In this document: in pieces, positions 2,525 to 60,178 of the stretch
Layout: each line of letters opens with the position of its first letter
Numbering within the stretch: position 1 is the stretch's first letter
NCBI GenBank assembly: GCA_951406725.2
Contig: OX597843.1
Coordinates: forward strand, 19,096,001 to 19,160,000
Source of the DNA: Octopus vulgaris
Taxonomy: Eukaryota
Reading direction: 5' to 3'
DNA length: 64,000 nucleotides
Translations under genes and position numbers: made by a program
The notes under the pieces: generated by a model
The model's database searches: none
What the model was told of the DNA's origin: nothing
The model's input: only the letters and a program-made list of their open reading frames with translations

Positions 2525-4362
<1,838 letters not shown>

Positions 4363-4819
4363 TAATAATAAAATTAATAATAAGAGACAATCCAGAAGAT
4401 CAAGTAAACGAGGATCGTACTGTTGAAGAAGATGAGGATCTGGGAAGAGGAGGAGGTGGAGGAAGTGTGGTATAATGTAAAGGATAGGATGATAAAGATG
4501 TTGAAGTGAATGTAACCGTGGAAGAAAGAGAAGGGCAACAACAACAACGACAACAAAATAGTTGTAGAAGTAGAAGGAGAAAAAATGAAGAAGAAAAAGA
4601 AGAAAAAGTAGAAGATAAGGTAAAAGAGAAGTAAATGTAGATGAAGGGAAAGATGTAGAAATGGAAGGGGGGGAAGGATCCCTACATAATAAGGAAAAGG
4701 AAAAACAGAAAAAAAAAACAAAATGAATAATTTAAAAAATAGGAGAAACGGAAAGAGAAGAGAAAGTAACAGAAAGAGTCATCAATTTTTCATTCCCCTC
4801 TCGCGTTCCATGCAGTCTT

Positions 4820-15574: not shown

Positions 15575-18328
15575 CCCCCTTCCTTCCTCTTTCCCTTATA
15601 TTCTCTTGCCACTTCTCCATTCTTCATCGTCTTATGACATTTTCCTTCCCCACCTCCCAAATTCAGCTCAATTTCTCCTGGTCTTTCGCCTCTTTATTCC
15701 ACATTCTCCCCCTTCCTTCCTCGTTTCCCTTCTTCATATTCTCTTGCCACTTCTATAGTTCTTTATGTTTTATGACATTTTCCTTCCCCACCTCCCAAAT
15801 TCAGCTCAATTTCTCCTGGTCTTTCGCCTCTTTATTCCACATTCTCCCCCTTCCTTCCTCGTTTCCCTTCTTCATATTCTCTTGCCACTTCTATAGTTCT
15901 TTATGTTTTATGACATTTTCCTTCCCCACCTCCCATATTCAGCTCAATTTCTCCTGGTCTTTTGCCTCTTTATTCCACATTCTCCCCCTTCCTTCCTCGT
16001 TTCCCTTCTTCATATTCTCTTGCCACTTCTATAGTTCTTTATGTTTTATGACATTTTCCTTCCCCACCTCCCATATTCAGCTCAATTTCTCCTGGTCTTT
16101 TTCACCTCTTTATTCCACATTCTCCCCCTTCCTTCCTCGTTTCCCTTCTTCATATTCTCTTGCCACTTCTATAGTTCTTTATGTTTTATGACATTTTCCT
16201 TCCCCACCTCCCAAATTCAGCTCAATTTCTCCTGGTCTTTTCACCTCTTTATTCCACATTCTCCCCCTTCCTTCCTCGTTTCCCTTCTTCATATTCTCTT
16301 GCCACTTCTATAGTTCTTTATGTTTTATGACATTTTCCTTCCCCACCTCCCATATTCAGCTCAATTTCTCCTGGTCTTTCACCTCTTTATTCCACATTCT
16401 CCCCCCTTCCTTCCTCGTTTCCCTTCTTCATATTCTCTTGCCACTTCTATAGTTCTTTATGTTTTATGACATTTTCCTTCCCCACCTCCCCATATTCAGC
16501 TCAATTTCTCCTGGTCTTTTACCTCTTTATTCCACATTCTCCCCCCTTCCTTCCTCGTTTCCCTTCTTCATATTCTCTTGCCACTTCTATAGTTCTTTAT
16601 GTTTTATGACATTTTCCTTCCCCACCTCCCATATTCAGCTCAATTTCTCCTGGTCTTTACCTCTTTATTCCACATTCTCCCCCCTTCCTTCCTCCGTTTC
16701 CCTTCTTCATATTCTCTTGCCACTTCTATAGTTCTTTATGTTTTATGACATTTTCCTTCCCCACCTCCCATATTCAGCTCAATTTCTCCTGGTCTTTTAC
16801 CTCTTTATTCCACATTCTCCCCCCTTCCTTCCTCGTTTCCCTTCTTCATATTCTCTTGCCACTTCTATAGTTCTTTATGTTTTATGACATTTTCCTTCCC
16901 CACCTCCCATATTCAGCTCAATTTCTCCTGGTCTTTCACCTCTTTATTCCACATTCTCCCCCTTCCTTCCTCGTTTCCCTTCTTCATATTCTCTTGCCAC
17001 TTCTATAGTTCTTTATGTTTTATGACATTTTCCTTCCCCACCTCCCATATTCAGCTCAATTTCTCCTGGTCTTTCACCTCTTTATTCCACATTCTCCCCC
17101 TTCCTTCCTCGTTTCCCTTCTTCATATTCTCTTGCCACTTCTATAGTTCTTTATGTTTTATGACATTTTCCTTCCCCACCTCCCATATTCAGCTCAATTT
17201 CTCCTGGTCTTTAGCCTCTTTATTCCACATTCTCCCCCCTTCCTTCCTCGTTTCCCTTCTTCATATTCTCTTGCCACTTCTATAGTTCTTTATGTTTTAT
17301 GACATTTTCCTTCCCCACCTCCCATATTCAGCTCAATTTCTCTGGTCTTTCGCCTCTTTATTCCACATTCTCCCCCCTTCCTTCCTCGTTTCCCTTCTTC
17401 ATATTCTCTTGCCACTTCTATAGTTCTTTATGTTTTATGACATTTTCCTTCCCCACCTCCCATATTCAGCTCAATTTCTCCTGGTCTTTCGCCTCTTTAT
17501 TCCACATTCTCCCCCTTCCTTCCTCGTTTCCCTTCTTCATATTCTCTTGCCACTTCTATAGTTCTTTATGTTTTATGACATTTTCCTTCCCCACCTCCCA
17601 AATTCAGCTCAATTTCTCCTGGTTTTTCACCTCTTTATTCCAAATTCTCCACCCTTCCTTCCTCGTTTCCCTTCTTCATATTCTCTTGCCACTTGTATAG
17701 TTCTTTATGTTTTATGACATTTTCTTCTCCACTTCCCATATTCAGCTCAATTTCTCTTGGTCTTTCGCCTCTTTATTCCACATTCTCCCCCCTTCCTTCC
17801 TCGTTTCCCTTCTTCATATTCCCTTGCCACTTCTATAGTTCTTTATGTTTTATGACATTTTCCTTCCCCACCTCCCAAATTCAGCTCAATTTCTCCTGGT
17901 CTTTCACCTCTTTATTCCACATTCTCCCCACTTCCTTCCTCGTTTACATTCTTCATATTCTCTTGCCACTTGTATAGTTCTTTATGATTTATGACATTTT
18001 CCTTCCCTACCTCCCATATTCAGCTCAATTTCTCTTGGTCTTTCGCCTCTTTATTCCACATTCTCCCCCCTTCCTTCCACGTTTCCCTTCTTCATATTCT
18101 CTTGCCACTTCTATAGTTCTTTATGTTTTATGACATTTTCCTTCCCCACCTCCCATATTCAGCTCAATTTCTCCTGGTCTTTCGCCTCTTTATTCCACAT
18201 TCTCCCCCCTTCCTTCCTCGTTTCCCTTCTTCATATTCTCTTGCCACTTGTATAGTTCTTTATGTTTTATGACATTTTCCTTCCCCACCTCCCAAATTCA
18301 GCTCAATTTCTCCTGGTCTTTCACCTCT
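15575..18328. repeat. pyrimidine-rich tandem satellite, 138-139-bp unit, about 20 copies, running into an assembly gap
   Basis: unit tatgacattttccttccccacctccc..ttctatagttcttta repeated head to tail with 1-bp indels. Confidence 0.97.
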
Positions 18329-18428
18329 NNNNNNNNNNNNNNNNNNNNNNNNNNNNNNNNNNNNNNNNNNNNNNNNNNNNNNNNNNNNNNNNNNNNNNNN
18401 NNNNNNNNNNNNNNNNNNNNNNNNNNNN
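18329..18428. other. assembly gap (100 N, true size unknown)
   Basis: run of N. Confidence 1.
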
Positions 18429-21857: not shown

Positions 21858-22029
21858 TATGTTTGACTTTTGCTTTATGTCTGTACATGTTGGCTCCAAG
21901 TCTCACCCAGGGACCACAAGAGACAACAGGTTGGAAGTTCTGTCCCATATATTTGGGGGTTTTTTTGTGTTGTACTAGTCAATGTCTAATACATAAAAAT
22001 AAAATTTAAAAAAAATAAATAAATAAAAT

Positions 22030-22062
<33 letters not shown>

Positions 22063-24207
22063 TGTTTGTTTTAAACCTTGGGATTACATAGAGAGTATTT
22101 TGCGTAGGATATGAGCAGTTCCCATGAGCACTATCTTTTGAATTTCTGCCATTTTGGGGTTTCCTGGTATCTGAGTTAGGTAGCAATTAGTCCCTTTCGC
22201 TATCATTCCCAGGGCACCTATGACAACAGGTATTGTTTTAGTCTTCCGCTTCCACATTTTACTGATTTCTATTTCAAGATCTTTATATTTGCTCAGTTTT
22301 TGGTAGGTCTTGACAGATACGTTTATATCGATTGGGACAGTCATATCAATGAGGAGGCATGTTGTTTGTCTGAAGTCTTTCAATATGATGTCTGGCCTAT
22401 TTGCATCTATCTTCCTGTCAGTTTGAATGGTGAAGTTCCAGAGGAGTGAGATGTGGTCATTTTGAAGCACTGGAGGTGGATTGTGTTCCCACCAGTTTTT
22501 TTCATGGGGCAAATCCAAGTTTTTGCAAATTACCCAGTGAATATATTGTGCAGCTCTATCATGCCTGTTGAGGTACTCTGTAGGCGCTAGAAGACTGCAT
22601 TTGGAGACAACATGATCAATGGTTTCATTTTGTTGTCGGCATACACGACATTGTTGGGCTACTGCCGTTCTTTAATATGTTGGCCTGGTAGTTTCTTGTT
22701 GGTAGGCATTGATCTTGAGCTGCTATGATAAACCCCTCTGTTTCAGATTTTAAGCCAGAGGCCATTAGCCATTGATGGGTCAGGGCTTTGTCAATATCTG
22801 CATTATTCGCTCTCTTTGGGTATTTGCCATAGAGAGGTTTTTCTTGCCATTTTTTATTCAGAATATCTAAGGCCGCAGTTTTGGCACGGGTTTTCATGCG
22901 CTTAGCTTTTTCTGTGCTTGTTTCTTGTATGTTTATCTCTAATTCCGAAATTGGTTGTATTCGGAATTCACTTAGATATTCCTTTGCCTGTTTTGTGACT
23001 GAGTATGATGCTTTCTTGTTTTCATGTTTTGAGACAAGTTTTAACATCCAGTCCTCAGAGATTTTCAGGTAGGTGTCTAGGCCAATTGTAGCAATCTTCA
23101 TTGTTATTGCAAGTTGTAAAAGACCACGGCCTCCCTCTTTTCTTGGCAGATAGAGTCGTTCTGTATCTGCCTTAGGGTGGTGCATTCTATGCAGTGTCAA
23201 CAGTTTCCTTATTTTTCTGTCGAGCTGACATATTTCAGTAATTGACCAGTTAACAACATTGAAACTGTAAGTCACGACTGGTATGGCTAAAGCATTGATC
23301 GCTTCGATCCTGTTTCTTGCATTCAGCTCTGTCTTGAGTATTGCTCTCACTCTTCGATAGCATTCTCTCCTGAACCTTTCCTTCATCTCTGAATGCCTTA
23401 TTCCGTTCCCTTCAATTACCCCTAGGTACTTGTAGCTCTCCGCTGGGTCTAGTTCTTTTATGACATTCTGCTGGTCAAGGTTAACGTTAGATGTTTCTGT
23501 CAGTTTTCCTTTGATAAATGTAGCTTTTGCACATTTATCGAGGACGAAATGCATTCTGATGTCGTCACTGAATTGTTTGACTATCGCTACTAAGCCCTTG
23601 AGTTGTTGGTCATTTTTTGCAAAAAGCCTTAAATCATCCATGTAAATGAGATGATTTATATTTTTATCAATCATTTTATACCCGTACTGCGCGTCATTGA
23701 GCAGCTTTGAGAGAGGTATTAAGGATAAACAAAAGAGGAGTTGTGACAGTGAGTCACCCTGGAAAATGCCACACGAAATTTTTACATCACCAGCATTTAG
23801 GGATTCATTGTCACTGTTCAGAGTTAGTCTGGTTCTTCATGATCTCATACTTACAGTCAAGAGGTTTCCTGCAGAGTAGGTGCTATCTTATACATTTCCA
23901 GGCATTTCCTAATCCAGCTATGTGGTAGGCTATCAAAAGCTTTTTTATAGTCTATCCAGGCTATTGATAAGTTTTTGTGTCGTTTGTGACAATCTTCTAA
24001 GATCATCTTATTGATGAGTAGTTGGTCTTTACAGCCGTAAGATCCACGTTTACATCCTTTCTGTTCATTAGGGAATATGCTGTTGTCTGTTAAAAAACTA
24101 TAGGTATATTCCGTCAGGACAGATGTTAGCGTTACTATAGGTATATTCCGTCAGGACAAATGTTAGCGTTACTATAGGTATATTCCGTCAGGACAGATGT
24201 TAGCGTT
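21855..24207 (-). mobile_element. RLE family B, longer 5'-truncated copy
   Basis: ORFs 22625..23674 (IYMDDLRLF) and 22084..22518; GIFQGDSLS and WIDYKKAFDS upstream; homologous to 2579..4252. Confidence 0.93.
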
Positions 24208-26784: not shown

Positions 26785-26828
26785 ATAAAATTTATATATA
26801 TATACATATATATATATATATTTTCTAG

Positions 26829-28305
26829 TTTCAGCTCAGAGCTGCGGCCATGCTGATGGATCGCCGTTTTGTGCTACACTGTTCTTACGAAGAACCTCGT
26901 CTAATATGTGGCACTTGGTGAAGAATGGAGTTCGATATAGCTACTCTCATTTGCACCTCTTGCCGTGAGGTAGGTTCATCTGGGACTCTTGACAGGAAGA
27001 TGTCCAGCTTTGATTTAAAAACCGCTACATCTACTTTGTGCAAGTTCCTCAGACTCTTTGTGAGAATATTAAAAAGTTGTGGGCCCTTGAATCCCAGGCT
27101 TTTGCAGAAGCTGGTCCTGAAGCGTGATGGCACTATGCAGTGTCGTCCCGCTCTAGTATTGGTGTAGCTTACAATGCCAAAATTTGGCACAATTCCTTCC
27201 AGGTTCTTCCAAACATATATTGCTGCATACCTCTCCCGTTTTCTCTCCAGGGAGTAGAGTCTTAGCTGTTTCAACCTTTCCCAGTAGCTGAGCTGTTGCA
27301 AAGAGACGATCCTCTTTGTGAATCTTCTCTGGATTGCTTCAAGGTCCGCTGTTAATTTCACACTGGTGGGTGACCATAGCTGTGAGCAGTAATCCATGCG
27401 GCTGAGGACGAATGTCCGCCAGAGGACCAACATCGTTTCCTTATCTCTGGTTCTGAATGTTCTTAGGATCCATCCATCCAGTCGTCTGCACTTTGTCGCA
27501 ATCCTGGTAATGTGCACTTGGAAAGAGGTATCATCACTCATGTCGATACCCAGATCCCTCACAGACTTAGGCTCTGGGATTGAAATTCCCTGTGGACCGG
27601 TGTATCCTGTAAGTTTAATATTCAGTTTTGGATGCTGGTAGCGCAGGGCCTGGAATTTTTCAGCATTAAGCTGCATATTATTATCTTCAGCCCATCTGTA
27701 GATTGAGTCCAATTCCTGCTGCAGGTGTGCAACATCGCTGGGGTTCTGTATTTTCGGCGAGACTTTCGTATCGTCTGCATAGCTTGCCAGAGTGGCTATC
27801 CGGGCATATCTGAGAGGGCCACTATCAAAAGCAGTGGTCCCAAGACAGTGCCCTGTGGAACACCGCTCACTATTTGTGTGTTCATAGAGGTGGCTCCATT
27901 AACCACTACTGCCTGACTCCTATCTTTCAGGAAGTCATTTAACCACACTCCAAGTTTTCCAGCTATGCCGAGATCACGCAGTTTGTGGCATATCATACCA
28001 TGATCCACCTTGTCAAAAGCTTTTGAAAAATCAAGGTAGATTACGTCCACATTTGATTTGTTGAGTAATTGTCTCAACACCCAGTCATAATGTTGTAAGA
28101 GCTGGGTCAGGCAGCTCCTACCTGGTCGAAAACCATGCTGGGTATCACTCAGCAAGTTATTTTCCTCAAGGAATGCGATTAGTTTCTTTCTGACTATCCG
28201 TTCCAGGAATTTGCTGATGTGTGAAGTCAGAGAGATAGGCCTATAGCTTTTGTCATCTGCTCTACTTCCCTTTATGTATTGGGCATATTATTTCTTCCTT
28301 CAGCT
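26829..28305 (-). mobile_element. CR1-clade LINE, 5'-truncated
   Basis: QHGFRPGRSCLTQLL, YLDFSKAFDKVDH, GVPQGTVLGPLL, SYADDTK, LYSLERKRER; flanked by (TA)n. Confidence 0.93.
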
Positions 28306-31327: not shown

Positions 31328-31560
31328 TCAAATATATATATAAAACTGAGAATGTGTGTCTGTCTGTCGGTCTTCTGTCTGTGTGTTTCCCTAAAACTTG
31401 AGAACTACACAACCAATTTCATTCACATTTTACACATGCCTTACTTAGGGTCCGGGAAGTGTCATCGGCAAAAAGATGTTGAACTTCTTGCCTAGAGCGA
31501 GCCCATAGCAACATCATATCTTCTCCACTATTTCAGTATTACGTGTTAAAAGTGAAACAA
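31328..31560 (+). mobile_element. probable non-autonomous Helitron 5' fragment
   Basis: TC..TATATATAAAA start followed by a (GTCT)n tract, like the start of the element at 60352; no 3' CTAG hairpin found. Confidence 0.45.
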
Positions 31561-32779
31561 AAACGTTTCTCTATTTTATGTCAGATACTTTCACTTTAAC
31601 AATAAAAATAATAATTACAATTGAATAATATGTAGTAAGTAATAATTAAAATCAAACTAAAGTAACATAACAAAAGTAAAAATAGAAACTGGTATAATAG
31701 ACGAAACCACTGTAAAATACCTTATTGTTGATGTCGCTATTTGACCTCAGATTAACTCTACTGATTCATGAGCAATGACGTTCTTGACGTGAACATTCCC
31801 TCTTTTTAGACATAGTTTATCATAGGTCACATAATCCAATATGTTATTAATTTCCTAAAATACTGTAAATTATTGTTCCTCAAGTATTAGGCTTTTATTT
31901 CTTAGCAGAACAATAGACCATGTAGGAGTTCCCTCTTAATAATGTTTGCAATCTGGTCATGAACGCAGAAAATTCAAAAGATGTCATCTTTTAGAGAGTG
32001 ACACAAAAAGAACACTTGTTTTAAGGTAACTTGGAACAAGGAAAATGTCAATTGCCTAAATACCTCAATGAATGAGTTGTGGAAAAAAGATATTAATTTT
32101 TACTTAATACATGGTAGTTCAATCAAGAATAAAGACAGATGAAGTACATGTATTATTTGGGATCGAATAGATTGGTAAACTGGCAAGATGTTGGAAGTAG
32201 TTGAAAAGGGATGCAAATGCGTGGATACAAAGATGAACGAAATATAATATTTATACATCCGTGATGAAATGTAAACTATAGAGAACAAAAGCACACCCTC
32301 CTTGTTCTAGTCTGTTGGGTAGGCTAAAGTTATTTGAATTTTCATGCAAATAGTTACAGTCTGATTTCGTCTCTTGACAGAAATCTAAGAGTTATCCATT
32401 CTGCACTTTCACCGGACATGCGAAGTAATATGTGAAGTTGGTGACAGTGAATTTTTACTACCCGACCAGGCCATTTAATCTTCATAAGTTTGTCCAAATC
32501 GTTTTTACATTTTATTACTTTTTGGTTCCCATTGAAACATATTGTTGAAAGAATCCATATTGCATATTACTGGTACCTATTTCCAAGAAACCAAAGGAGA
32601 ATATGGCATGAAGTGACGAGTGTGTGATACGAAATAAAATATTCATTTCTTTTGAACTCGACAGTTTTTCTGAACAAAAACATTATCAACAAAATCCATT
32701 CAAATGTCATATAATAATGATTTTAAATATTAATTAATATCTAGAGATCTATATTCATTTCTGTAAATGTCGTTATCAG

Positions 32780-32852
32780 GTTTTCCAGCAGTCATCGTTA
32801 TAATTACCCTGGCAATTAACTCCACAAACAATTACATCAAAATCGCAGAGGT
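32780..32852 (+). CDS. adhesion/secretin-class GPCR exon, TM4-ECL2
   Basis: ttatcag acceptor and gtaagt donor; (G)FPAVIVIITLAINSTNNYIKIAE(V); phase 2 end joins in frame to CWL of the next exon. Confidence 0.88.
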
Positions 32853-33243
32853 GTAAGTATTTCTCTTTTTCGTTCACCTCATTTTCTCTGCTCTTCACAA
32901 CTAATATTATTGCTAGATATATATTACCCCTTTAGTATTGTAGAATACTAGGTCAGCTAGCATCAAGCCACGACTTTGATTGCTGGTAGTAAACCTACTT
33001 CAATATCATTGTTAATGCTTTTGTTCTAAGACTCATGAATATCAATGATTTCATTTGTGTTTCTCCTCTCTTCAATTTAATAAGACCAAATATCTACTGA
33101 TGAAAGCAACATACAAAAATATAAACAAAACATATATATATATAATCAATGCAAACATGAACAAGCAAGAAAAAACAATAACGCGAGGACGTGGAACAAG
33201 TACTGTTATTGGGTACTCAGGAAAGGAAAGAAAAGAAAGAGAA

Positions 33244-33276
33244 TTTCACGTTTCGAGCGGAGCTCTTCATCAGAAA
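33244..33276 (-). ncRNA. minimal type I hammerhead motif (Penelope-type), probably inactive
   Basis: - strand TTT-CTGATGA-A-GAGC-TCC-GCTC-GAAAC-GTG-AAA; G at the cleavage position. Confidence 0.6.
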
Positions 33277-33672
33277 TACAGAAAAAGTCCAAAGAAGGAA
33301 AGACGGAGAAAGAAAATCACCAACAATACACACGCAGTCACATATTGAAATGACCGGAACTGCCGCTACGTTCTGAGTTCAAATTCCCCGAGATCGACTT
33401 TGCATTTCATCATTTCGGTGCCGATAAATTAAGTACCAGTTACATACTGGAGTCGATCTCCCCCGAAATTTCAGGCCTTGTGCTTATAACAGAAATGCAT
33501 ATTTTCTTTATATAATTTGTTAAAAATCATTTTTATTAAATTCCCTCTTAAATTGAAATGACATAGACTCACTTCTGTGCTATTCTCATCTCCATATCTT
33601 ATATATATACAAATTTCAAATGTATAGACCTCTAATCTTTTGTCAACCTGTGTGTGCGTGTGTGTGTCTGTG

Positions 33673-34300: not shown

Positions 34301-34443
34301 CATAATTTGTCGCAAGTATGAGACATTTTTTCGTTTCGTTTTGGATCGAAATCACTCCACATAAATCCTTGTCTGATACTTCATTTTATTGGCTGAACAT
34401 CTGATGAATTTCTTTTCTTCATTGCTTTCTGTTTTCTTTGTAG

Positions 34444-34832
34444 CTGTTGGTTAAACATACCTTCTTTCTTTGCTGCTTTCCTGACTCCCGTTGTGATGGT
34501 CCTCATCTTCAACTTTATCATGTTCTCTCGTGTGATAACACGTCTCATATCAACGCAAAGAAACAAAAGATTTGAACACAAAAGAAGAAAAGTGCGTGTT
34601 TTGGGCCTGGTTGGTTTGATGATTTTGCTTGGATTCACATGGGTCTTTGCATTCTTGGCTGTTAGGGAAGCGACAAAAGTGTTTGAGTATCTTTTTTCTA
34701 TATTCAATACCCTTCAAGGAATGTTTATCTTCCTATTTTATTGTGTGTACAAGAAAGATACACGCGATGTCATCAAAGAGTCCGTGAATAAACGAAAGAG
34801 AGCGAATCCCAGGAGAGTTGTCGCCGGCAGAA
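34444..34832 (+). CDS. adhesion GPCR exon, TM5-TM7 and helix 8
   Basis: ctttgtag acceptor and gtaagt donor; CWLNIPSFFAAFLTPVVMVLIFNFIMF..LLGFTWVFAFL..YLFSIFNTLQGMFIFLFYCV are class B2 motifs. Confidence 0.95.
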
Positions 34833-35151
34833 GTAAGTGCGATTTGTGTTGGTTTCTTTTTTATTCATTGCACCGTGAGAACCATCGCCAATATTGTCGT
34901 GATAGTGATAATCACAAACACCATTTCTAACAACACAGTCACTTTTAGGATAGACATCATCAAAATATCAACACTGCTGTTGTCGTCGCAATCATCGTCG
35001 TCATCATCATCATCATAATCACTACCTTCATCATCATCGTCGGTGTCGTCTTCGTTGTCGACGTCGTCCAGATGGGGGGAACACATACGCCACAGAAACC
35101 GGGAAACCGGACCCATGAGCCTGGCAAGGCTTGAAAAGGGCGACGTTTATC

Positions 35152-35213
<62 letters not shown>

Positions 35214-35402
35214 GTATATATTAGAACGTTTGGAGATGATGTACAGGTATTTAATATTAGAAGAAATGAAGTACTCAGAAATTCGGATGGTTTTATATTT
35301 ACAGATATTTATTTGTATATTACATGTTTTTATACATCATATAACTTATATCATATATTAGCGCTTTTGTCTATTCTGGTGGAGTTTTCAAATTGAAATA
35401 AG

Positions 35403-35441
<39 letters not shown>

Positions 35442-35550
35442 ATATGTATGTATATATGTATATATGTGTATATATGTATGTATGTGTATATATGTATCTA
35501 TGTATATATGTATGTATGTGTATATATGTGTATGTATATATGTATTTATG

Positions 35551-35645
<95 letters not shown>

Positions 35646-35702
35646 ATATATATATGTATGTATATATATATATATATGTATATATATATGTATATATGTA
35701 TA

Positions 35703-35771
<69 letters not shown>

Positions 35772-36262
35772 GTATATATATAATAAAGTTTATTTGTCAA
35801 CAGAATGTGGCAGTCCTCCACAGGAACGTGTTACTGTTGTTGAGCTCCAGGGAAACATCCTTTCCTGCTGCCTACCAGATGTATTTCTCTTTAGGGGATC
35901 AGCGATTATGACCCTTTAAAAAGTACATAGCATGAGCAAGATGAGTAAGCTCCCATCACTGACCTGTGATTATCTCACACCGAATACGGGAAGCAACCCC
36001 GAAACATAGGTCTGTGGGTATCATAAAGGCTAGAGATGGGGACGATGAACTCCGTTGCTCATGTTATGCTAGACGAACACAAACTGTATGTCGGTGGCCT
36101 ACTGGAAAAAGTGTTTTCCTGAGGCTAAACAACAGTAAGATCATCCTAAGTAGGACTGTCACATTCTGTTCACAAATAAACCTTACTGTTCGATACCGTT
36201 ACATATCTCTCGCTCAAACATCTAAAACTAGTTGTTTTTCTCATATATATATATAAATATAT

Positions 36263-36610
36263 AGGCGCTGGAGTGGCTGTGTGGTAAGTAGCTTGCTAAC
36301 CAACCACATGGTTCCAGGTTCAGTCCCACTGCGTGGCATCTTGGGCAAGTGTCTTCTACTATAGCCCCGGGCCGACCAATGCCTTGTGAGTGGATTTGGT
36401 AGACGGAAACTGAAAGAAGCCTGACGTATATATGTATATATATGTATGTATGTATGTTTCTGTGTCTGTGTTTGTCCCCCTAGCATTGCTTGACAACCGA
36501 TGCTGGTGTGTTTACGTCCCCGTTACTTAGCGGTTCGGCAAAAAGAGACCGATAGAATAAGTACTGGGCTTACAAAGAATAAATCCCGGGGTCGATTTGG
36601 TCGACTAAAC
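36263..36610 (+). mobile_element. tRNA-derived SINE
   Basis: near-identical to 29477..29880, 3' tail shortened. Confidence 0.88.
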
Positions 36611-36845
36611 AAATAAAAAATAAAAATTAAAATATATATATATAAATATATACATATATATATGAATATATATATATATATAAATATATATATTAACTAT
36701 ATATATATATATATATATAAATATATATATTAACTATATATATATATATATATAAATATATATATTAACTATATATATATATATACATATATATATAAAT
36801 ATATATATTAACTATATATATATATATATATATAAATATATATAT

Positions 36846-36886
<41 letters not shown>

Positions 36887-36994
36887 TCGGGGTGAGTACT
36901 TGATAATTATAAGCACCTGTGTATACCGTTTGGTGGTGTAGGTGGTGGAGTAAATTGATCAAAATAAAAATAAAAACATGAGGCGAAGGATTCA

Positions 36995-37072
36995 GCGGTA
37001 CATATGTTTCGGGCCTTTATTAGACAGATTTATAACAAAGCATAATGTATGTCTGTGGCCTTCTTCAGCCGC
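36995..37072 (-). ncRNA. type I hammerhead ribozyme (left palindrome arm)
   Basis: exact reverse complement of 38621..38698. Confidence 0.8.
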
Positions 37073-38620
37073 GCACAACAGCTTCCACAAGGACATGTGT
37101 TACATCAAAAATTCTTGGTTGGGGATGCAAATCCTCTCATTCCCGTACGACATAATGCGGCAGCAGCATAGAATTGAAGCGTCCATCTCTTTCTTCTCTC
37201 AATGTAGAATGAGGAAACTTGGATGTTGAGGTAATGTAAATAAATAAATACGTATATAGAGGTGAAGATGGAGGGGCGAGAGTTCGGGACGAGGGATAAA
37301 AAATATATATAAAAAATGTACGTATAGAATAATATAAAAATGTACGTATAGAATAATATAAAAATGTAGAGGATAAAGATATAAAGAGTTGTAAGGAGAT
37401 GTAAAGGGGGTATAAAGAAATATAAAGAAATATAAATAAATGTAAAGGCATAAGGTTGTAAAGTAAAAATAGAAATGGAAATAATAGTAAAAGAAGTAAA
37501 AGAACCTGATAAAAACATGATAAAAGTGTAAAAGAATGTAAAGATAAGGGATGTGTAGAGGTCGCGGACCAAGCATGGTGGTCAGGAGATTGATAAAACT
37601 TAGTTGTAGAACTGTCAGTAAATTAACAGTTTCGTCGTAAATCAGAGCTGATGAGAATTTAATCTGGTTCCTTGAATTAAATGGACTTCCAGTACATACA
37701 TATCATCATGGATACATACACCCACATACACGCGTACATATACGTCTCCAAGCCTGTAAGCATACACACGCACTCGCGTGTAAACACGTACATAAACACA
37801 CACGCACCCACACGCACGCGCGCACACACACATACATACAACAGAATATCCGCATATATAGACGGACATTACGCGCGTACACGCTCACATGTATATACGC
37901 GCGCCCCTCACTACATACGCACACGTATATGCCCACGTCTCTTGGAGACGTATATGTACGCGTGTATGTGGGTGTATGTATCCATGATGATATGTATGTA
38001 CTGGAAGTCCATTTAATTCAAGGAACCAGATTAAATTCTCATCAGCTCTGATTTACGACGAAACTGTTAATTTACTGACAGTTCTACAACTAAGTTTTAT
38101 CAATCTCCTGACCACCATGCTTGGTCCGCGACCTCTACACATCCCTTATCTTTACATTCTTTTACACTTTTATCATGTTTTTATCAGGTTCTTTTACTTC
38201 TTTTACTATTATTTCCATTTCTATTTTTACTTTACAACCTTATGCCTTTACATTTATTTATATTTCTTTATATTTCTTTATACCCCCTTTACATCTCCTT
38301 ACAACTCTTTATATCTTTATCCTCTACATTTTTATATTATTCTATACGTACATTTTTATATTATTCTATACGTGCATTTTTTATATATATTTTTTATCCC
38401 TCGTCCCGAACTCTCGCCCCTCCATCTTCACCTCTATATACGTATTTATTTATTTACATTACCTCAACATCCAAGTTTCCTCATTCTACATTGAGAGAAG
38501 AAAGAGATGGACGCTTCAATTCTATGCTGCTGCCGCATTATGTCGTACGGGAATGAGAGGATTTGCATCCCCAACCAAGAATTTTTGATGTAACACATGT
38601 CCTTGTGGAAGCTGTTGTGC

Positions 38621-38698
38621 GCGGCTGAAGAAGGCCACAGACATACATTATGCTTTGTTATAAATCTGTCTAATAAAGGCCCGAAACATATGTACCGC
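38621..38698 (+). ncRNA. type I hammerhead ribozyme (right palindrome arm)
   Basis: GCGG-CTGAAGA-A-GGCC..GGCC-C-GAAAC-ATAT-GTA-CCGC; stem I GCGG/CCGC, palindromic stem III ACATATGT, predicted cleavage after A38694. Confidence 0.8.
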
Positions 38699-38913
38699 TG
38701 AATCCTTCGCCTCATGTTTTTATTTTTACTTTGATCAATTTATATATATATATAAATATATATATTAACTATATATATATATTCATATATATATATGTAA
38801 CTATATATATACATACATATATATATATGTAACTATATATATATATACATATATATATATGTAAATATATATATACATATATATATATGTAAATATATAT
38901 ATATATACATATA

Positions 38914-39128
<215 letters not shown>

Positions 39129-39190
39129 ATACAATCCAGGAATTAACAAGTTTAAAATTAATATTTTATATCGTTTTCTCGTGTTTCCAG

Positions 39191-39237
39191 GATTTGGTAA
39201 TGAAATCGAGGATAGAAGAGCAGAAACAAACTTCTAA
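39191..39237 (+). CDS. terminal coding exon of the adhesion GPCR
   Basis: gtgtttccag acceptor; phase 1 matches the previous exon; (R)[14 protein letters not shown], ending in a class I PDZ-binding-type motif. Confidence 0.72.
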
Positions 39238-40412
39238 GTGAAAATTGAAAAAGTGCCTTCAAAAATCGCCTTCGATAATATTTTACGTCATAAAATAATA
39301 TTTTCTCCATATATGATATTAAATATAAATGTATAATATTAAATATAAATAAATACTCTTAAATATGAATATATAATATTAAATATAAATATTAATATTA
39401 AATATAAATATATACTCTTAAGTATGAATATTAAATATGAATATATAATATTCTTTTCTCTAGGCACAAGGTCGGAAATGTTGGGGGTGGGGGCCAGTAC
39501 GCAACTGGTACCTAATTCATCCATCCCGAAAGGATGAAAGCAAAGTCGACCTCGACGGAATATAAATATATAATATTGAATATAAATATTCAATATATTT
39601 GCTTGTTAAGAAACTATATTTGTACCTTTCGGTTCACCACTAGGCAACCGAGAGACTGCATAATCCACAATAATATAATCTTAAATGTTTAGTTTTCGGC
39701 TTTTTTTATTACTCTATATCTGTATCCTATGACCCGTCGTAACATTTCTATTTAGCCTATTGTTTGAAACACAGGAAAACAGAAAATGTTGTTTTGATTT
39801 GAAACTGTGTTGATATTCTTTCCTATTGCCACTTTAATTTTAACAATGTAAACCTTAAAATTGAATAAAGGATTAAATCTGACTTATTGCTTGCTTTTGT
39901 TTTTTTAGATGAAATAATGTAATACTGTAGTCTAAGTTCAAATACGGCCTGGAGGGGCAGTGATTTCATCTCTTATTTTAAACATGCCACTAAAAAGTTG
40001 AAAACCTGCAAGATATATCCAACTGATAAGATTTATAATCGTTTATCTAATTAACATTATTAGGTCTTTCAACTCTCGTTGTTCTAGCAATGAATGTTTC
40101 ACAAACAATTATATTCCATCTGTCTTTTACACATTCATGTCTACTTTCACTGTACAAATGTCACAACAACACGTGACTGCACATGCGAAAATGTCTACAT
40201 TGAAGTTAGACTAGTTAGGCTGCAATATCTCGGTATCCAACGTATTTAAACATCCGAGGATACAAGTCTCCCCACTGAACGAGATGCCTGTTTGTCGTAA
40301 GATTAACCCTTGGTTGTTGCTGGTACTCCTTTTCAGATGAGTGCACTGAAAGTGTCTTTCTCGTGGATACAACGCACCGAACCAATGGCCCATGCACCTT
40401 TATATACATATA

Positions 40413-59401: not shown

Positions 59402-60170
59402 ATCCCAGAGCCTAAGTCTGTGAGGGACCTGGGTATTGAGTGATGATACCGCTTTCCAAGTGCACATTACCAGGATGGCGACAAAGTGCAGACGACTGGC
59501 TGGATGGATCCTAAGAACATTCCGAACCAGAGATAAGGAAACCATGATGGTCATCTGGCGGACATTCGTCCTCAGCCGCCTGGATTACTGCTCACAGCTA
59601 TGGTCACCCACCAGTGTAAAATTAACAGCGGACTTTGAAGCAATCCAGAGAAGATTCACAAAGAAGATCGTCTCTTTGCAACAGCTCAGCTACTGGGAAA
59701 GGTTGAAACAGCTGAGACTGTACTCTCTGGAGAGAAGACGGGAGAGGTATGCAGTAATATATGTCTGGAAGATCCTGGAAGGAATCGTGCCAAAGTTTGG
59801 CATTGTAAGCTACACCAGTGCTAGAACGGGACGACACTGCATAGTGCCAAAGACCCCAGCAATGCTATCATGCTTCAGGACCAGCTTCTGCAACAGCCTG
59901 GGTTTCAAGGGCCCACAGCTTTTTAATATTCTCCCAAAGAGTCTGAGAAACTTTCACAAAGTAGATGTAGCAGTTTTTAAATCAAAGCTGGACATCTTCC
60001 TGTCGAGAGTCCCAGATGAACTTACCTCGTGGCAAGAGGTGCAAATGAGAGTAGCTATATCAAACTCCATTCTTCACCAAGTGCCACATATTAGACGAGG
60101 TTCTTCGAAAGAACAGTGTAGCACAAAACGGCGGTGAATCAGCATGGCCGCAGCTCTGAGCTGAAGCAAA
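59400..60170 (+). mobile_element. CR1-clade LINE 3' fragment, same family as 26829..28305
   Basis: ORF 59436..60137 closely matches ORF 26885..27712; flanked by (TA)n. Confidence 0.93.
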
Positions 60171-60178
60171 CAAAACAA

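Follow-up and report, generated by a model that had tools for sequence, protein, structure and literature searches.

A hammerhead-bearing palindrome in an octopus GPCR intron is probably a recent head-to-head insertion of a high-copy Penelope-like element

Introduction

An almost perfect palindrome with a hammerhead ribozyme motif near each outer end lies in the last intron of an adhesion GPCR copy of Octopus vulgaris, raising the question of what this structure is, how it was formed and whether it could act on the transcript around it. A sequence-only reading of the window, that is, of the whole 64,000-nt stretch analysed here (assembly GCA_951406725.2, contig OX597843.1, positions 19,096,001 to 19,160,000 of the forward strand), had proposed a young, non-coding insertion of Penelope-like element (PLE) or retrozyme type, through which the intron could either self-cleave or fold into an 800-bp duplex that hides the ribozyme.

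Results

Self-comparison and repeat annotation bore out the two near-identical inverted 802-bp arms placed in (TA)n that had been described at this locus (Table 1). The arms differ at 2 positions (36964/38729 and 37319/38374; 99.75% identity) and are separated by a 188-bp spacer (37753-37940) without self-complementarity, and a TA-rich microsatellite flanks the insertion on both sides. The palindrome and its (TA)n site thus stood, whereas the span had to be corrected: the insertion begins at 36882, and the 69 bp that follow are not flank but the element's own 5' start, here called the tail, which is present on the left arm only and is 100% identical to positions 1-82 of a full-length copy, L050:5338-9755. 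Read on the minus strand of this L050 reference, the insertion consists of ~3450-4418 followed by 1-82 (the tail), plus an inverted copy of 3640-4417. It is 96-97% identical overall to the L050 3' UTR, and because the spacer falls within the same alignment it is assigned to the left copy; in other copies of the family this sequence likewise runs on from the arm. The two copies meet with a 2-nt overlap, and a 6-bp inverted repeat spans the junction. A 24-bp duplication is common to the two arms and absent from the other segments among 28 aligned. As had been reported, six-frame translation of the insertion gave no RT ORF, and the insertion is non-coding solely because it is truncated.

Table 1. 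Features of the palindromic insertion and of its host GPCR copy (window coordinates).
Feature	Position	Strand	Evidence or comparison
Most upstream exon kept in the adhesion GPCR copy (P0121 residues 730-754)	32779..32853	+	
7TM exon, adhesion GPCR G6-like (residues 755-883)	34445..34832	+	7tm_2 match
Left target microsatellite, TA-rich, five AAATATATATATTAAC-type units	36632..36881	.	Same array, element-free, in paralogs L121-L123
69-bp tail, first bases of the element's 5' UTR, on this arm only	36882..36950	-	100% match to L050
Main copy, distal PLE 3' UTR: left arm (36951-37752) and spacer (37753-37940)	36951..37940	-	96.7% identity to L050
Main-copy type I hammerhead motif, antisense to the GPCR exons; predicted cleavage after 36999	36995..37072	-	Mirror of the right-arm motif
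Head-to-head junction	37941..37942	.	Sequence; family comparison
Second copy, inverted and tail-less (reference 3640-4417; right arm)	37941..38742	+	L050 alignment; 24-bp duplication
Type I hammerhead motif, sense to the GPCR exons; palindromic stem III; predicted cleavage after A38694	38621..38698	+	
Right target microsatellite	38743..39124	.	
Last coding exon (14 protein letters, not shown, then stop)	39191..39237	+	

Five paralogous GPCR segments at 96-99% identity were compared with the window, and two (L124 and L125), from which the segment is missing altogether, were dropped as uninformative. In each of the other three (L121, L122 and L123) the microsatellite is kept and the element is absent; L122 is colinear with 34400-36881 and then with 38740-39400, and the microsatellite has 5+1 units in the window compared with ~6 in the empty paralog L121, counts from which no target-site duplication stands out. 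Contigs of four public runs matching 37753-38742 consisted of family sequence; among the matches listed, none crossed the junction, and family continuations appeared as loose ends at 37941/37942. Because empty-site paralogs exist, the tail and the spacer are one-sided and non-palindromic, respectively, and the arms differ at two sites, these sequence comparisons argue against a fold-back artefact and indicate that the palindrome is real and very recently inserted, in keeping with the young age that had been proposed. In L121 (C39), a different ~700-bp insertion with an internal direct repeat occupies the same TA tract, which suggests that this tract is a repeated insertion target.

The high-copy relatives expected of a PLE-type insertion were found in the octopus genome itself: a 303-bp arm query returned 1453 candidates, and the 40 that were scored are all 99-100% identical. 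The 22-nt ribozyme motif has 1184 exact genome matches, compared with 0 for a control. Wider stretches around 20 copies showed an ORF upstream of the arm sequence, and the full-length copy L050 spans 4418 bp, with an 836-aa ORF, a 1.75-kb 3' UTR and the ribozyme core at 4300. The predicted structure of this ORF (pLDDT 78) has telomerase RT as its top fold-search match, and its motifs include ADKT at 125, LYRDD at 356 and VIY..YIG at 715-732, together with the cysteine motifs CNCRCASEC at 696, CQLC at 793 and CIH at 823 and one Cys between VIY and YIG. Motifs and predicted fold point to a PLE-type RT followed by a C-terminal GIY-YIG-type endonuclease, the latter by motif alone, and in this sense the RT and GIY-YIG partner for which a genome-wide search had been suggested was located. 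Pfam called neither RT nor GIY-YIG on the L050 ORF, and GIY-YIG was called in 1 of 12 members of the protein alignment (E 0.012); the PDB sequence search left the ORF unrecognised, whereas the fold search did recognise it. Two low-confidence N/R/T-rich inserts (residues 486-551 and 629-694) make the ORF ~130 aa longer than most relatives. Among 150 scored endonuclease-domain matches, 8 lie in open frames of at least 828 aa, some of them 5'-truncated, and because of these long open frames the octopus family appears young.

A protein search identified 1378 relatives among 8000 scored candidates, the best 120 at 30-44% identity, and the 11 relatives that were aligned have the same Hydra-type motifs as the L050 ORF. 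Section 11 of PMC8557442 lists for the Hydra clade RWK in place of GxKF/Y, a change of DKG to DKT, a CxCX5C linker, CxxC and CxH flanking a conserved E and N, the absence of CCHH, insertion into (TA)n and a hammerhead close to the 3' end. The L050 ORF has DKT, CxCX5C, CxxC and CxH and no CCHH. It also has RW, which is invariant in all 12 aligned proteins, with A as the third residue (K in 7 of the 11 relatives; the published Hydra-1_Crog has RWR in the supplement of PMC8557442). Downstream of 95 of 98 motif matches a TA-type run begins within 300 nt, the rest being two tandem junctions and one stray match, and the hammerhead core lies at 4300/4418 in L050 versus 2403/2507 in Hydra-1_Obim. By the motif criteria of that section, the family is classed as a PLE with Hydra-clade motifs. 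A Naiad PLE was considered and rejected, because the endonuclease motifs are C-terminal and a hammerhead is present, whereas in Naiad the endonuclease is N-terminal and a canonical hammerhead is lacking.

A type I hammerhead motif near the outer end of each arm was likewise confirmed at the sequence level, without support from Rfam, which gave no hammerhead at the gathering threshold or at E<=10. The right-arm motif has the CUGANGA / GAAA / NUH core and stems I-III of this type: stem I is GCGG (38621-24) with CCGC (38695-98), the core CUGAAGA-A (38625-32) is followed by stem II, GGCC...GGCC (38633-36/38678-81) with a long loop, and then by CGAA, and stem III is a perfect 8-nt palindrome, ACAUAUGU (38686-93), next to A38694, the predicted cleavage position. 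The left arm carries the mirror motif on the minus strand, giving one motif per strand. The constrained hammerhead fold (-19.5 kcal/mol) lies ~7 kcal/mol above the minimum (-26.6 kcal/mol), with a monomer probability of ~2e-5. Minimal PLE hammerheads reportedly cleave as dimers. In the available text of PMC4209133, metazoan PLE hammerheads cleaved little as dimers and not detectably as monomers, and according to the accessible part of PMC11167929 the hammerhead of a lizard PLE depended on the element's protein. Of 95 ribozyme copies from 56 other loci, 82 have exactly the core and stems seen here. Among diverged copies, the motif was matched at 12 of 15 loci; L111 has core substitutions, stem II of L115 carries a double change from C-G to U-A, and L114 has one wobble change. 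This persistence fits a role of the ribozyme in the element's own cycle. A further hammerhead-like motif, at L120:139-230 (+) beside a diverged element copy, belongs to a different family, and its stem III is a different 8-nt palindrome.

The proposal of an 800-bp duplex that hides the ribozyme gains support from folding of the whole insertion, in which all 78 bases of the right-arm ribozyme are predicted to pair with the left arm, a prediction that ignores proteins and kinetics. The right-arm ribozyme is sense to the GPCR exons, as had been read, and a plus-strand transcript of the insertion contains this single sense ribozyme. If the intron were transcribed, the left arm would be made first and the right arm would zip onto it; the masked single ribozyme would neither fold nor meet a dimer partner, and the transcript would be an ordinary long-dsRNA substrate of ADAR or RNAi type, long duplexes being a normal ADAR-type substrate in the accessible text of PMC9989829. 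Self-cleavage of the GPCR pre-mRNA, the other outcome that had been envisaged, is unlikely because there is one sense ribozyme, its stem III is of the dimer type and masking is predicted to be complete, and the hammerhead at this locus is predicted to be carried along silently. When singleton substitutions were counted on the sense strand of the element, A>G was not in excess (A>G 14, T>C 45, C>T 31, G>A 20), and thus there was no sign of edited templates.

The placement in the last intron of a GPCR gene held for the exon and both splice sites, with a GT donor at 34833 and an AG acceptor at 39189-90. Octopus proteins that match the 7TM exon carry the name adhesion GPCR G6-like, and P0121 joins this exon to the exon at 39191; P0121-type matches are gene models, probably of paralogs in the same assembly, and are not independent evidence. 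That a GPCR pre-mRNA is made here is doubtful, since the copy shows only its last three exons in this assembly. Homology to three paralogs begins abruptly at ~31698, beside a repeat at ~31340-31560 that we take, by resemblance, to be Helitron-like. With 150 of 152 candidates scored, the preceding exon was matched at E<=1e-20 at six sites in the genome, but not at this locus, and the rest of the window plus 99 kb upstream gave only two distant N-terminal exon matches at 41-69% identity. The copy is likely a 5'-truncated duplicate, although the missing exons could lie within an assembly gap at 18329-18428.

Several further features were observed around this copy. The adhesion GPCR G6-like gene is in recent tandem or segmental expansion, with five other copies at 96-99% over the whole query and many at 70-82% (C30, C31, C39). 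In the preceding GPCR intron, 33243-33285 (-) holds a minimal hammerhead-like motif (CUGAUGA-A, a 4-bp stem II, GAAAC-GU and a G where cleavage would occur), which was probably left behind by another PLE family. A 139-bp tandem array of ~20 copies (15575-18428) ends at a 100-N assembly gap, and inverted repeat pairs at 91-95% identity lie at 2578-4102 / 22000-23526 and at 26821-27540 / 59437-60174, the latter pair falling within a LINE-type RT fragment (26885-28287).

The palindromic shape is not peculiar to this locus but is what the family routinely produces. The first 100 listed motif matches (contig C1, 2.4-169 Mb) correspond to 69 loci, of which 27 are head-to-head, compared with ~0.17 expected by chance; extrapolated from C1, the genome may hold roughly 300 palindromes of this family. 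We analysed 25 of these 27, leaving out two with spacing >9.7 kb. Exactly one arm is tailed in all 25, and in 36 of 37 palindromes when 12 further loci, including the one in the window, are counted; the exception, L042, is complex and has no tail. Single-ribozyme loci are divided between 10 tailed and 9 untailed. At 9 of the 25 C1 palindromes, the 5' end of the untailed arm lies >50 nt, and as much as 3.8 kb, beyond that of the tailed arm, so that at these loci each arm has sequence absent from the other; at the window locus the untailed arm is the shorter one, and at many short loci both arms stop within ~10 nt of each other. Junctions across loci are blunt, overlap by 1-5 nt or contain a few extra bases.

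Arms of one palindrome usually appear to be of the same subfamily. With L042 and pairs overlapping by <200 nt left out, 25 of 27 pairs have an arm-to-arm distance below the median of the distances to other copies; the partner arm is the nearest copy in 14 of the 27, ties with others in 5, and is further away than other copies in 8. Gene conversion between arms is not separable from a shared template in this comparison. At L099 and L103, 0-1 differences separate the arms over ~750 bp, compared with 17-36 to the nearest other copy; this may reflect gene conversion between the arms or, alternatively, recent insertion from a rare source copy. We also observed a cluster of 5' truncations at element positions ~4150-4166 (L084, L085, L093, L097, L098 and L102), a possible RT pause or RNA break site.

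Discussion

Overall, the palindrome is very probably a recent, 5'-truncated, head-to-head insertion of a high-copy PLE with Hydra-clade motifs, likely made by two-strand priming, with a hammerhead that is predicted to be silent. A fold-back artefact of assembly or of a read, to which the near-identity of the arms and the want of a junction-spanning contig among the matches listed might point, is extremely unlikely: the tail is one-sided, the spacer lacks self-complementarity, 2 sites distinguish the arms, the flanks are colinear with empty-site paralogs rather than mirrored, and the same asymmetric tail rule recurs at 36 of 37 loci. We regard as close to negligible the chance that the insertion is a non-autonomous non-LTR retrozyme spreading as a small circular RNA. 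Retrozymes consist of monomers of 150-450 bp in head-to-tail tandem (PMC7229834; bioRxiv 10.64898/2026.07.22.740005), and no such tandem is present at the locus; although the type I hammerhead and the missing local ORF would suit this reading, the insertion is made of 3' UTR from an element that bears an ORF and whose copies are truncated at variable 5' points, and the two ribozymes lie on opposite strands. The L050 alignment largely refutes the non-coding, retrozyme-type element of the sequence-only reading, and the insertion is better described as a truncated copy of an autonomous 4.4-kb element without a small tandem monomer. It is also very unlikely that the insertion is a functional regulator whose sense hammerhead cleaves, or whose duplex modulates, the GPCR pre-mRNA. 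Against the intact core and stems (as in 82 of 95 copies of the other loci examined), the sense orientation of the right-arm motif and the standing of young repeats as main A-to-I targets in metazoans in the accessible text of PMC9989829 must be set the single sense ribozyme, the lack of detectable cleavage by PLE monomers and the protein dependence of the lizard PLE hammerhead (in the parts of PMC4209133 and PMC11167929 available), the predicted pairing of 78 of 78 ribozyme bases with the other arm, the absence of upstream exons from this GPCR copy, and the very recent date of an insertion that the paralogs lack.

The origin of PLE tandem and inverted structures is stated to be unresolved in section 15 of PMC8557442, and self-priming was proposed earlier for Penelope inversions in the accessible text of PMC3846280. 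Applied here, one cDNA or antisense template would fold back on itself to prime the inverted arm, and one side would afterwards lose its tail. Besides that precedent, several observations suit such a route: the window's untailed arm lies wholly within the tailed copy, the 6-bp inverted repeat spans the window junction, many short loci have both arms ending within ~10 nt, and arms have private variants in common. We nevertheless consider it unlikely, though not fanciful. The one-tail rule and the unique sequence in each arm at 9 of 25 loci disfavour simple fold-back, since a single folded, tailed cDNA needs an extra step to give arms that each have >50 nt (to 3.8 kb) of their own, and several junctions are blunt, without overlap. 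In vitro, by the accessible text of PMC11167929, the protein of the lizard PLE PAc nicks and extends both strands, and its RT starts at two sites bounding the tail; PAc is of the Poseidon clade, whereas the octopus element has Hydra motifs. A comparable course, to which we give slightly better than even credence, is two-strand nicking of (TA)n with two RT start sites, one source RNA and 3'-to-3' joining of cDNAs. The RT-endonuclease would nick both strands of (TA)n; of the two 3'-OH groups, one would prime reverse transcription from the tail end and the other from the pLTR end, ~70 nt upstream; both cDNAs would be templated by RNA from one source copy and both would stop early; and their 3' ends would then be joined to each other, using little or no microhomology. 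More tentatively, and with somewhat less than even confidence, we suggest that PLE palindromes arise by such asymmetric twin priming, with a dimeric RT-endonuclease, two fixed start sites, one source RNA and head-to-head joining.

The locus is thus a routine product of an active-looking transposon family and is not one to be pursued as a GPCR-regulating ribozyme. The family, being young, with long open ORFs and a strict one-tail rule, is useful for testing the origin of PLE palindromes, and its arm counts weigh against plain fold-back and agree with the use of two strands and two start sites that another PLE shows in vitro. If twin priming is true, each such insertion would supply a long dsRNA from the outset, in an animal whose RNA is known to be heavily edited.

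Comparison with known systems

In LINE-1 twin priming, 5' inversion is explained by priming from both target strands. The two L1 segments do not overlap, whereas here the 3' end is duplicated, giving a palindrome. In the literature within reach, which left out subscription journals and Repbase, we found nothing describing this octopus family or with PLE twin priming as its main subject. Metazoan non-LTR retrozymes (PMC7229834) resemble the insertion in having a type I hammerhead and no local ORF, but the octopus sequence is part of an autonomous element, without a small tandem monomer and with ribozymes on opposite strands. Hammerhead pairs on opposite strands are described for Schistosoma in the available text of PMC4209133, as here.

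The Hydra-clade PLEs, as far as the accessible text and supplement of PMC8557442 describe them, have RW/DKT, CxCX5C, CxxC/CxH, no CCHH and (TA)n targets in common with the octopus element, as well as a hammerhead ~100-120 nt from the 3' end, whose stem III is palindromic and whose core adjoins a mismatch. They are 'generally <3 kb', whereas the octopus element is 4.4 kb long, with its 1.75-kb 3' UTR, a long loop 2 and two ORF inserts; the N/R/T-rich inserts are reminiscent of the asparagine-rich inserts of rotifer Penelope. Hydra-1_Obim of Octopus bimaculoides (2507 bp; File S1 of PMC8557442) differs in protein and ribozyme when compared by eye, and because of these differences the present family is considered distinct from it.

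Penelope inverted pLTR/tail structures, in the accessible text of PMC3846280 and in section 6 of PMC8557442, likewise have an inverted 5'-truncated copy beside a main copy and a tail at one end only; their tails are 30-40 bp long, compared with ~70 bp in the octopus. With Poseidon PAc of Anolis, as described in the available part of PMC11167929, the octopus element has in common a tail that is the start of the next unit, AT-rich targets and a hammerhead in the pLTR region. PAc belongs to another clade, and its ribozyme overlaps the ORF start, with RT start sites inside the ORF, whereas both ends lie upstream of the ATG in the octopus element. Compared with the earlier Penelope descriptions in those accessible texts, the octopus family adds a one-tail rule that has been counted (36 of 37 loci) and documented arms with mutually unique sequence.
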